Source: Promethearchaeia archaeon (GTDB lineage Archaea > Asgardarchaeota > Lokiarchaeia > Sigyniarchaeales > SOKP01). Taken from it: DNA of 64,000 nucleotides. This document shows, piece by piece, positions 46,299 to 48,458 of the stretch. The notes beneath the pieces are model-generated. The model did not search any database. It saw only the letters and a list, made by a program, of their open reading frames with translations, and was not told the DNA's origin. Position 1 is the first letter of the stretch. Every line of letters begins with the position of its first letter. The position numbers were made by a program, and so were the translations under genes. The stretch covers positions 64,001 to 128,000 of the forward strand of contig JAHQWK010000004.1 of NCBI GenBank assembly GCA_029856145.1. Reading direction: 5' to 3'.

Positions 46299-48458
46299 TT
46301 ACAATTCTCCTTTATGAGCCTTTAGCTTTACTGTTAAATCTCGTGCTCGTTTTGAATACCAGATCAATAATTCTCCAGCATCTTCGGGTTTGAAGTATTC
46401 TCCTCCACACAGTGCTGCTGCACGGCTCATCAACGTGTCATCAGGGTTCCCTAGTCCGACCACGTATACAACAACGGAGGGATTGTCAGCCAATTTTTTA
46501 ATCTCATTTAAGAAAGCATCCCCATCCGTAGGCACGCCGTCTGTAAGTATTACTATCATCGTTGGCTGGTCAGGATTCATCTTTTGGAATTCATCTAACA
46601 CTTGATGAGCTTGTATCATCGCAGAGCCCATGTTTGTCGCTTGACCGTACGCATTTCCTACCCGATCGACAATCATACGAGCCGCATCTTCAAGAACACC
46701 CTTTTTACCGCTTGCAGAATCCATATAGAAGCCACCGCCGAATGGTAGTACTTGTGATTCATCAGCAAATCTAATTACTGAAACTTTTTCGCCAAAACCT
46801 CTTCCTACTTTTTCACTTAAGAAGAGAACCGCCGCAAAAGCAGCAGATATCCTTCGCGGTATGTTAATTCCATCTTTAAAATGTTTTAGAAATTCTTGGA
46901 TTTCTCGAGATTCCATAGCAGCTTTTATTCCCTCGATAGCAGGAGCAATATTAGTAACAAATACATCACGTGCCATCATTGAACGGCTAATATCTATTAT
47001 TAAAATAGCGTTAAATGGAATTAAACCTACTGGACTTAAGGATAAGGTCGTATTTGGGGAAACTCTAGCAAAAATATCGCCAGTTAAATCAGGAACCGTA
47101 TCAAGAACTGAACAAGCAATATTTACTGCAGCCCATCTTAGTTTTATCCCTTTAAATATAATATAGTTTGAAATCCAGCCCTTCATAGAATTTGCATTTT
47201 CTCGAGCAGTACTTATTATTTCCCACATATTTTCACCTGAAATAGGGGAAATTCCTAGAGAGATGTTTTGTAATGGGATAATGGTTCTTTGGTTCTTGGA
47301 GACTTTTACTTCAAAACTACCGATACCAGAAGCTTCCAAAATTTCACTATCAATAACTATTACATTATCAGGCGTAGTCTCTGAAACTTCTACTTTTCCA
47401 GCACCCATAGCTCCCGTAAGCTCATCCTCAAAAGCTAAAATATCCTCTGTTTGAAGTGAGAGGCTATACTGTGTTCTTGGGCTGACTAAAACAAAACCCA
47501 TTAAATTTGGTTGAGATTGGACTTCTAGCATTAATTCAGAAGCTTTTTGTATTGGAGGCTCAGTTGAGTATATAACAACTTGTTGAGCTTGAATATTTGT
47601 ATCTTCATATGTATCCATACTCATATTAATTTCATTCATTCCAATATTTGCTTGATCTATTCTTGCCGAGCCCATAGCTCTCGTTAAGGGATCCTCCCAA
47701 GCAATCAACATTCCTTGTCCAAGGCCTAGTTGTTGGATAATACTAGGATTTAACTGTACTCTACCTCCTTCAATACTATCGTCAATCCTAGGTGTAAGGA
47801 TTATTCCGTTTTTTTGACCTTGTAGCATATTTATATCGATTTTGTTTGGATATGGTTCTATAGGTGCAGCTGGTTCCACTCCATATTGGGTAACTCCAGG
47901 TTGTGGTATTTCCATTGGAGGAGGAGGCCGTGTTGGTAAAGGTGTCATAGAAGGTTGGGGTGTAGGAGTCAGTTGGGGTGCAGGTGCAGGAGTAGGCGCG
48001 GGAGGTGGTGTGAATGACGGTTGAGGTGCTGGAGTGGGTTGGGGTGCAGGTGCAGGTGTAGGCGCGGGAGGTGTAGGTAATGGAGATAATGAAGATTGAG
48101 GGGTAGGCGTTGGTGTTGGAGTGGGTTGGGGTGCAGGTGTAGGGGTAGGTTGAATTGTTGGGACTTTTGGAATTTTTAGTGTTGGAGTAAGTGTTGCTGC
48201 AGCACTTATGGGGCGAACTGTTAATTCAACACCTGAAAATTGTAGGTCATCTAAGATGTTTTTTGAAAATTGACCAGCAAAATCTAAAACTTTATCAGAA
48301 ATTTCAATAGTAGCTTTTTTTTTCAAATTATTATCAATATTTAAAATTTCTATTATATCCCCGTTCTTTACTCCTAGCGCATTCGCGTTAGATTGACAAA
48401 TTATAACTTTATCTTTAATTTCATTATTCGCATCGACAAAAAGTTTGATTTCTGTCAT
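46299..48458 (-). CDS. vWA domain protein with three CDC48-N-like beta-barrel repeats and a Pro-rich linker
   Basis: MIDAS motifs DISRS, TNMG and LTDG. Repeated ALGVKNGD / QLGLGQGM / SLSLQTED units. A ~90-aa P/T/A-rich tract. Confidence 0.8.
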   Translation of the reverse strand: MTEIKLFVDANNEIKDKVIICQSNANALGVKNGDIIEILNIDNNLKKKATIEISDKVLDFAGQFSKNILDDLQFSGVELTVRPISAAATLTPTLKIPKVPTIQPTPTPAPQPTPTPTPTPQSSLSPLPTPPAPTPAPAPQPTPAPQPSFTPPPAPTPAPAPQLTPTPQPSMTPLPTRPPPPMEIPQPGVTQYGVEPAAPIEPYPNKIDINMLQGQKNGIILTPRIDDSIEGGRVQLNPSIIQQLGLGQGMLIAWEDPLTRAMGSARIDQANIGMNEINMSMDTYEDTNIQAQQVVIYSTEPPIQKASELMLEVQSQPNLMGFVLVSPRTQYSLSLQTEDILAFEDELTGAMGAGKVEVSETTPDNVIVIDSEILEASGIGSFEVKVSKNQRTIIPLQNISLGISPISGENMWEIISTARENANSMKGWISNYIIFKGIKLRWAAVNIACSVLDTVPDLTGDIFARVSPNTTLSLSPVGLIPFNAILIIDISRSMMARDVFVTNIAPAIEGIKAAMESREIQEFLKHFKDGINIPRRISAAFAAVLFLSEKVGRGFGEKVSVIRFADESQVLPFGGGFYMDSASGKKGVLEDAARMIVDRVGNAYGQATNMGSAMIQAHQVLDEFQKMNPDQPTMIVILTDGVPTDGDAFLNEIKKLADNPSVVVYVVGLGNPDDTLMSRAAALCGGEYFKPEDAGELLIWYSKRARDLTVKLKAHKGEL
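47900..48160 (-). repeat. Coding low-complexity Pro-rich repeat (PTPAPQPT / PPAPTPAPAPQ)
   Basis: GC-rich imperfect DNA repeats such as ggggtgcaggtg x3 and gtaggcgcgggaggtg x2. Confidence 0.85.

Follow-up and report, generated by a model that had tools for sequence, protein, structure and literature searches.

The gene at positions 46,299 to 48,458 of the window (the whole 64,000-nucleotide stretch analysed here, positions 64,001 to 128,000 of contig JAHQWK010000004.1 from a Promethearchaeia archaeon of the Lokiarchaeia) raises the question which partners are served by a protein that joins a Cdc48-type N domain directly to a vWA domain. Named close homologues also place the source genome in the Lokiarchaeia. 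The original prediction, made from the sequence alone, saw in this Cdc48N-vWA protein a possible archaeal antecedent or analogue of the module with which the GATOR1 subunit DEPDC5/Iml1 begins, a eukaryotic nutrient-signalling protein that acts on roadblock-containing Rag GTPases; as an alternative it named a Cdc48/proteasome adaptor. Across genomes the gene is inherited together with genes for an amide-forming ligase and a hydrolase, and not with Rag GTPases, so that service to these two enzymes is its most likely role. We propose that the protein is probably the non-catalytic docking subunit (adaptor) of a three-part module of Asgard archaea, the archaea most closely related to eukaryotes, together with a YbdK/GCS2-type ligase and a TIM-barrel metal amidohydrolase. 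The proposal builds on the observed fold, an intact metal ion-dependent adhesion site (MIDAS), conserved catalytic motifs, joint inheritance, adjacency, co-duplication and fusions; for the mechanism we draw on what is known of the protein families.

Domain layout and distribution of the family

The Cdc48N-vWA gene is present as a single copy in the source genome and encodes the following parts:

46299..48458, minus strand: whole gene, 719 amino acids (barrel 1, proline-rich linker, barrel 2, barrel 3 plus N-subdomain 2 (N2), vWA)
48204..48458, minus strand: double-psi-barrel-like repeat 1, residues 1-85, with a profile match to repeat 3
47850..48203, minus strand: Pro/Thr/Gln-rich linker, residues 86-203 (118 residues)
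47550..47813, minus strand: double-psi-barrel-like repeat 2, residues about 216-303, motif EDPLTRAMG
47289..47540, minus strand: double-psi barrel 3, residues 307-390, motif EDELTGAMG
47022..47282, minus strand: Cdc48 N2-type subdomain, residues 393-479
46323..47021, minus strand: vWA domain, residues 480-712

The domain reading of the original prediction was borne out. Its three repeats with a double-psi-barrel-like pattern are homologous to each other in profile comparison (probabilities 94-98%, controls <5%), and the motifs quoted for them, including EDxLTxAMG in copies 2 and 3, were all found. Barrel 3 and the segment behind it, predicted to resemble CDC48 N-subdomain 2, are confidently modelled as a p97-type N domain, so that barrel 3 and N2 form one complete Cdc48-type N domain. 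Structure models cover barrel 3 plus N2 and a 408-residue core; barrels 1 and 2 are known from sequence profiles. Barrel 3 is common to all family members, and repeat 1 (Pfam CDC48_N E 0.003; IML1_N E 0.42) is confined to Lokiarchaeia-class members and is the least conserved of the barrels. The vWA domain has the Rossmann-like fold with DxSxS, T and D, and its MIDAS is intact as predicted, with conserved residues D489, S491, S493, T608 and D640; a family-specific helical insertion of ~35 residues follows the first MIDAS loop. The predicted lack of an AAA domain also held: there is no AAA Pfam match, the chain is fully covered by barrels, linker, N2 and vWA, and it ends 7 residues past the vWA. 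The linker between barrels 1 and 2 had been missed. Among 188 homologues it measures 62-180 residues with 34% proline, a run of at least four prolines occurs in 87 of 189, and its DNA contains 66-nucleotide direct repeats. Scans for sigma-70 promoters and terminators stayed at chance level, with models unsuited to archaea.

Of the 301 Asgard genomes sampled, 177 contain the core, and these represent 10 of 30 families. Members with a named source belong to Promethearchaeota, Helarchaeota, Freyarchaeum, Asgardarchaeum, Thorarchaeota, Sigynarchaeota and Heimdallarchaeota, and one member cluster includes a Hodarchaeota-labelled sequence; source labels of the assemblies are loose, and class names for anonymous families (e.g. 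Hodarchaeales-like, Thorarchaeia-like) are our own tentative assignments. Three barrels occur only in Lokiarchaeia-class members, and the other members have about 410-500 residues with one barrel, N2 and vWA. When 1.84 billion representatives were searched exhaustively with a profile, 92 proteins, mostly full-length members, scored E 1e-30 or better; the ESM Atlas match is an unnamed cluster of 117 members (96% archaea) that represents the family itself. Outside Asgard, one genome (of 61 in its class) carries a divergent member with both enzymes; occurrence beyond Asgard is sporadic. Viral contigs gave only a 42-residue vWA match. A search for longer relatives found no full-length eukaryotic homologue, which is weak evidence; the extra parts of longer members are ligase, hydrolase, ubiquitin-like, second vWA or low-complexity. 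A 760-residue N-domain match in family f4 turned out to be an ordinary Cdc48, and a second f4 match is the contig-cut start of a Cdc48N-vWA gene.

The Cdc48N-vWA family is real and undescribed. No published description of the family, of the trio with the two enzymes or of an Asgard DEPDC5 candidate was found, in a search outside of which lay subscription papers and supplements, and nothing relevant was found on Asgard with GCS2 or on a ligase with vWA and amidohydrolase.

Association with a ligase and an amidohydrolase

Clustering of the neighbours of diverse members revealed two recurrent partners that the original prediction had missed, an Amidohydro_2 protein of ~490 residues and a GCS2 ligase that is fused to, or followed by, Ig-like repeats. 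The ligase motifs align with Escherichia coli YbdK (E 8e-15) with the catalytic motifs kept, and the hydrolase keeps DxHxH, KxH, H and D. Across the 301 genomes (177 with the Cdc48N-vWA gene, 169 with the ligase), detection of the ligase and of the Cdc48N-vWA gene coincided in all 30 families, with both in 10 and neither in 20. The hydrolase lies within two genes, and the ligase is adjacent or ~10 kb off, in Asgardarchaeum, the Freyarchaeum family, Thorarchaeia-like, Heimdall/Hodarchaeales-like and Helarchaeales genomes and order-level Loki relatives. Divergent subfamilies retain the trio, and the most distant full-length member found, outside Asgard, has the gene order ligase-vWA-hydrolase. 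In two families, paralogous trios (a and b) sort together in all three gene trees; the single mismatch is accounted for by an additional copy of the vWA gene, 6-7 kb from the enzymes. Lastly, a Cdc48N-vWA-ligase fusion occurs in one lineage (P0287/P0374) and a hydrolase-Cdc48N-vWA fusion in about ten representatives of 870-890 residues. Across a third of the sampled Asgard families the three genes are retained, duplicated and lost together, a pattern indicative of an amide-bond modification pathway that is as yet uncharacterised.

A complex predicted for the core and the hydrolase of the source genome scored 0.54 against 0.00 for the best control, with contacts agreeing to at least 72% between runs and a partner pLDDT of at least 75. 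Scores of 0.60 or lower were reached by just 7 of 80 solved complexes and by both of the 2 passing mismatches (of 110), and most passes at this level are wrong where the pairing was not already likely, so that the modelled contact is weak evidence.

From what is known of these families, the ligase would activate a carboxylate, probably a glutamyl group, with ATP and join it to an amine, and the hydrolase would cleave the resulting amide. The metal at the vWA MIDAS may grip an acidic side chain of a substrate, adduct or partner, and the N-domain cleft may bind a partner peptide, by analogy with the binding of cofactors by p97-N. Through both sites the adaptor could position substrate or enzymes. 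We somewhat favour a protein substrate, i.e. reversible glutamyl-type tagging, over a small metabolite, since chemistry on metabolites requires neither an adaptor nor very long Ig-like arms. Among clustered neighbours of at least 70 residues, no small tag gene or proteasome gene recurs.

Several observations weigh against the proposed module. In the source genome the Cdc48N-vWA gene lies ~77 kb from the hydrolase-ligase operon, which is itself intact with its scaffold gene (hydrolase-ligase-scaffold, C3:189580-194803); the genes are apart in its family too, and neither enzyme was found within 8 kb in any of 80 close loci. In two families, one of the paralogues in each genome lacks enzyme neighbours, and the counts overstate the pattern since kin are not independent. 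In one genus (g10), ligase and hydrolase are both absent from three genomes (one single-contig, two drafts 87-92% complete). The Cdc48N-vWA protein of this genus has diverged to about 21% identity and its MIDAS has decayed in two of the three genomes, and this decay alongside enzyme loss speaks for the module. Against it, the gene survives in g10 without the enzymes and so has, or acquired, another role there, and one copy retains the MIDAS residues.

Some members stand in unusual surroundings. In the non-Asgard trio (L171:1460-12209), flanking membrane proteins end in polyproline runs and a common acidic C-terminal motif ending WL, and the ligase has an N-terminal hydrophobic segment. A Cdc48N-vWA-GCS2 fusion (L165:10001-12889) adjoins queuosine-pathway-like, TIR, SLATT and DNA methylase genes, in what looks like a defence or DNA-modification island. 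Fusions of 870-900 residues (L051:4472-7129, L147:7543-10224; Thorarchaeia-like, Freyarchaeum-family, f28) combine a decayed amidohydrolase with a MIDAS-less Cdc48N-vWA. Divergent members neighbour giant proteins, one of 2740 residues with a GCS2 domain deep inside (L167:1-6534) and one of 3943 residues without Pfam matches (L168:1-8200). In the source genome, a 75-codon piece resembling the C-terminal domain of the hydrolase lies at C3:186877-187101, and several Rag-like GTPase genes and a folliculin-like longin with a GP motif (C3:180824-186714; L148:825-6715) lie 3-9 kb from the hydrolase-ligase operon.

On a Sigynarchaeota contig (L163:5360-11698), a Cdc48N-vWA protein with a C-terminal ubiquitin-like domain is encoded head to head with an operon for ubiquitin, E1, E2 and JAB. 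The protein could be a cofactor of Cdc48 or the proteasome like Ufd1 or Rpn10, with barrels that would hold unfolded or ubiquitin-like substrates and a vWA that would dock on an AAA+ machine. The member with the ubiquitin-like tail speaks for this, but a ubiquitin link was seen in a single lineage and no Cdc48, proteasome or MoxR gene recurs as a neighbour in the loci examined. Moreover, Cdc48 is also found in Asgard genomes that lack the family, which leaves the patchy profile of the family unexplained. We therefore consider such a cofactor role unlikely.

Neighbouring genes in Lokiarchaeia and other lineages

Three genes near the Cdc48N-vWA gene in the window bear on alternative roles:

48741..49130, minus strand: Roadblock/LC7 gene, directly upstream
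49285..50124, minus strand: gelsolin-like gene
43487..44683, minus strand: actin-family gene, three genes downstream (context only)

Roadblock is the upstream gene in 64 of the 70 close Lokiarchaeia loci that show one, and in order-level relatives; none was seen beside the Cdc48N-vWA gene in loci of other classes. Within 8 kb, a gelsolin-like gene was found in 67 and an actin-family gene in 62 of the 80 close loci, which are close kin (at least 78% identity); a gelsolin-like gene also lies near one paralogue in two Freyarchaeum-family genomes. In the window, the Cdc48N-vWA gene is followed on the same strand by AbrB-ACT, 287-residue polybasic/coiled-coil and actin-family genes (43487-46041).

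This context could imply that in Lokiarchaeia the protein is a cytoskeletal adaptor, of which the proline-rich tether would recruit profilin-type or other polyproline readers and make a connection with gelsolin and with the product of the nearby actin-related gene. The proline content and proline runs of the linker and the frequency of gelsolin-like and actin-family neighbours are in line with this, and the roadblock and gelsolin neighbours persist in g10 after the loss of the enzymes. However, the 80 loci are so closely related that their synteny may be inertia, the linker varies in length without a fixed motif, the g10 protein examined lacks its proline-rich character, and the one-barrel forms of other classes have no such linker. 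A cytoskeletal role is doubtful, and would be compatible with one in the ligase module. For the proposed docking subunit, two extra barrels and a proline-rich tether would have been added in Lokiarchaeia, and the roadblock, gelsolin and actin-family neighbours in the source family may mark the targets of the adaptor.

In other lineages different genes take these places. Helarchaeales have a longin-like gene in the place of roadblock (Pfam Longin E 0.0035). In all four Hodarchaeales-like loci, an atypical small GTPase without a Gtr1_RagA match and a winged-helix-like gene head the same-strand cluster; a one-barrel Cdc48N-vWA protein of this lineage thus sits in a cluster with a small GTPase. 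In these loci (L188:12229-17090, L189:3257-8118, L190:13635-19001, L143:1-3997), a ~1030-residue ATPase, called HerA-like from its Walker A context only, precedes the trio along with GTPase and winged-helix-like genes. The GTPase-related neighbours are hints, but each of the three is of another kind, and such genes abound in these genomes. The window itself has a second roadblock-like gene (15451-15804, plus strand) and an MglA-like small GTPase (31544-32167, minus strand), and such genes are common here.

The neighbours could be taken to mean that the protein scaffolds a GATOR1-like complex and, together with NPRL2-like longins, regulates roadblock-bearing GTPases of the Rag type. The roadblock, longin-like and GTPase genes agree with this, as do the structural matches to DEPDC5 (see below), the NPRL2-like proteins reported in Thor and some Loki genomes (10.1101/2020.10.19.343400) and the binding of NPRL2 by DEPDC5 SABA (PMC8534245). 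Against it, the chain stops right after the vWA, without SHEN, DEP and CTD, and the GTPase-related neighbours change from lineage to lineage, with none next to the gene in Thorarchaeia-like, Freyarchaeum-family and Asgardarchaeum loci. Co-occurrence carries no signal, since Rag-like GTPases are just as common in Asgard genomes without the family; Gtr1_RagA matches number 54 in the source genome, which also has at least 8 roadblock genes, and 8-18 in each of three genomes without the family. The link to roadblock and Rag proteins that the original prediction suggested thus finds little support, as the roadblock neighbour is kept only in Lokiarchaeia and the proposed check on Rag-like GTPases is uninformative. 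A GATOR1-like complex seems highly improbable.

Two further loci in the window were noted. At 40877-43468 (minus strand), three consecutive open reading frames (489, 70 and 212 residues), the last with a weak CHAT match, match one 869-residue frame of a relative (L059:12566-15175); the gene appears to be split here, or there are assembly errors. Adjacent frames of 674 and 816 residues at 23149-27659 (plus strand) have starts that read, by eye, like DNA gyrase B and A.

Comparison with DEPDC5/Iml1 and other known systems

In a Foldseek search with the model of the 408-residue core, ranks 1-4 were taken by chains of DEPDC5/Iml1 (Sea1), i.e. the NTD-SABA of GATOR1/SEACIT (PDB 9o5e_H, 8adl_W, 8ae6_W, 9xzy), at E 2-3e-12 and TMq 0.41-0.45. 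The fold comparison proposed with the original prediction thus put DEPDC5 NTD-SABA at the top, but the lead over p97 is less than threefold in E-value. The root-mean-square deviation from DEPDC5/Iml1 was 7-8 over ~420 columns versus ~19 for p97, a comparison of packing that is limited by the predicted TM score of the model (pTM 0.62); the family's own Atlas model likewise reaches just TM 0.59. The N domain alone is structurally nearer to p97, PEX1 and NSF than to DEPDC5, and the vWA finds its best matches, in structure and profile searches alike, among generic vWA domains.

Profile searches gave little sign of DEPDC5. Pfam IML1 (PF12257) had no match in 23 members nor at the family's loci in five genomes, and IML1_N (PF23013) reached 11-14 bits against a cut-off of 27, for barrel 1 only. 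Among 25 families listed for 71 diverse members, CDC48_N matches 28, and IML1 and IML1_N were not found. DEPDC5 was not among the 50 matches listed in either VIA-align search with the core model. It was likewise missing when profiles of the vWA, the deep family and barrel 1 were compared with solved structures (60 matches listed), and from the 27 rows that the N-domain profile gave; one earlier profile reached it at E 0.048, for the barrel only and tied with VAT-N. This absence from profile and structure listings is compatible with descent, which it does not exclude.

Of the suggested antecedent or analogue of DEPDC5/Iml1, the domain architecture stood, while the affinity of the N domain to p97, PEX1 and NSF and the missing Pfam IML1 match spoke against it. 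The likeness to NTD-SABA is architectural and may reflect descent, which we hold slightly less probable than the contrary; it is not one of common function. The Cdc48N-vWA protein is at best a possible ancestor of the front half of DEPDC5, and the DEPDC5-like architecture is stronger in one-barrel relatives than in the 719-residue protein. More tentatively still, a one-barrel Asgard Cdc48N-vWA protein might have been the ancestor of NTD-SABA, with eukaryotes losing ligase and hydrolase, the MIDAS decaying and the scaffold being reused for GATOR1; such decay would resemble that in g10, where the MIDAS decays with enzyme loss. In the published surveys that could be searched, Asgard relatives are described for NPRL2/3, folliculin, roadblocks and Rag GTPases, but not for DEPDC5, of which a 2021 review calls the domain composition unique. 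The family, with its DEPDC5-type N-terminal layout, is a concrete and testable candidate for the missing relative. If true, this ancestry would complete the set of three GATOR1 subunits in Asgard archaea and connect the third of them with the writing and erasing of amides. As the cultured Promethearchaeum syntrophicum encodes a homologue (P0170), both the DEPDC5 gap and the amide pathway can be addressed experimentally.

DEPDC5/Iml1 proteins are the only solved proteins found with the Cdc48N-vWA layout: like the family, they join a Cdc48/NSF-type N domain directly to a vWA-type domain, aligned end to end, but SHEN, DEP and CTD follow SABA, which the Asgard protein lacks. The N domains of p97/Cdc48, PEX1, NSF/Sec18 and VAT and the UT3 domain of Ufd1 share the fold of the Asgard N domain; unlike in p97-type proteins, the latter precedes a vWA rather than AAA rings, and barrels 1 and 2 lack N2. 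None of the vWA proteins TFIIH p44/Ssl1, Rpn10, ITIH, BatA/BatB and Sulfolobus ArnB (8s05) has a Cdc48-type N domain, and compared with these the helical insertion after the first MIDAS loop is the Asgard family's own. PafA and Dop are the writer-eraser pair of pupylation, and by analogy the Asgard pairing of a ligase with a hydrolase resembles a write/erase system. Unlike in pupylation, there is no Pup-like tag among the clustered neighbours of at least 70 residues, and the putative eraser is a TIM-barrel amidohydrolase rather than a second protein of the ligase fold. The catalytic motifs of the YbdK/GCS2 carboxylate-amine ligases (PF04107; PDB 1r8g, 1tt4) are kept in the Asgard ligase, which, unlike YbdK and the pupylation ligases, bears Ig-like arms of 500-2000 residues or more.
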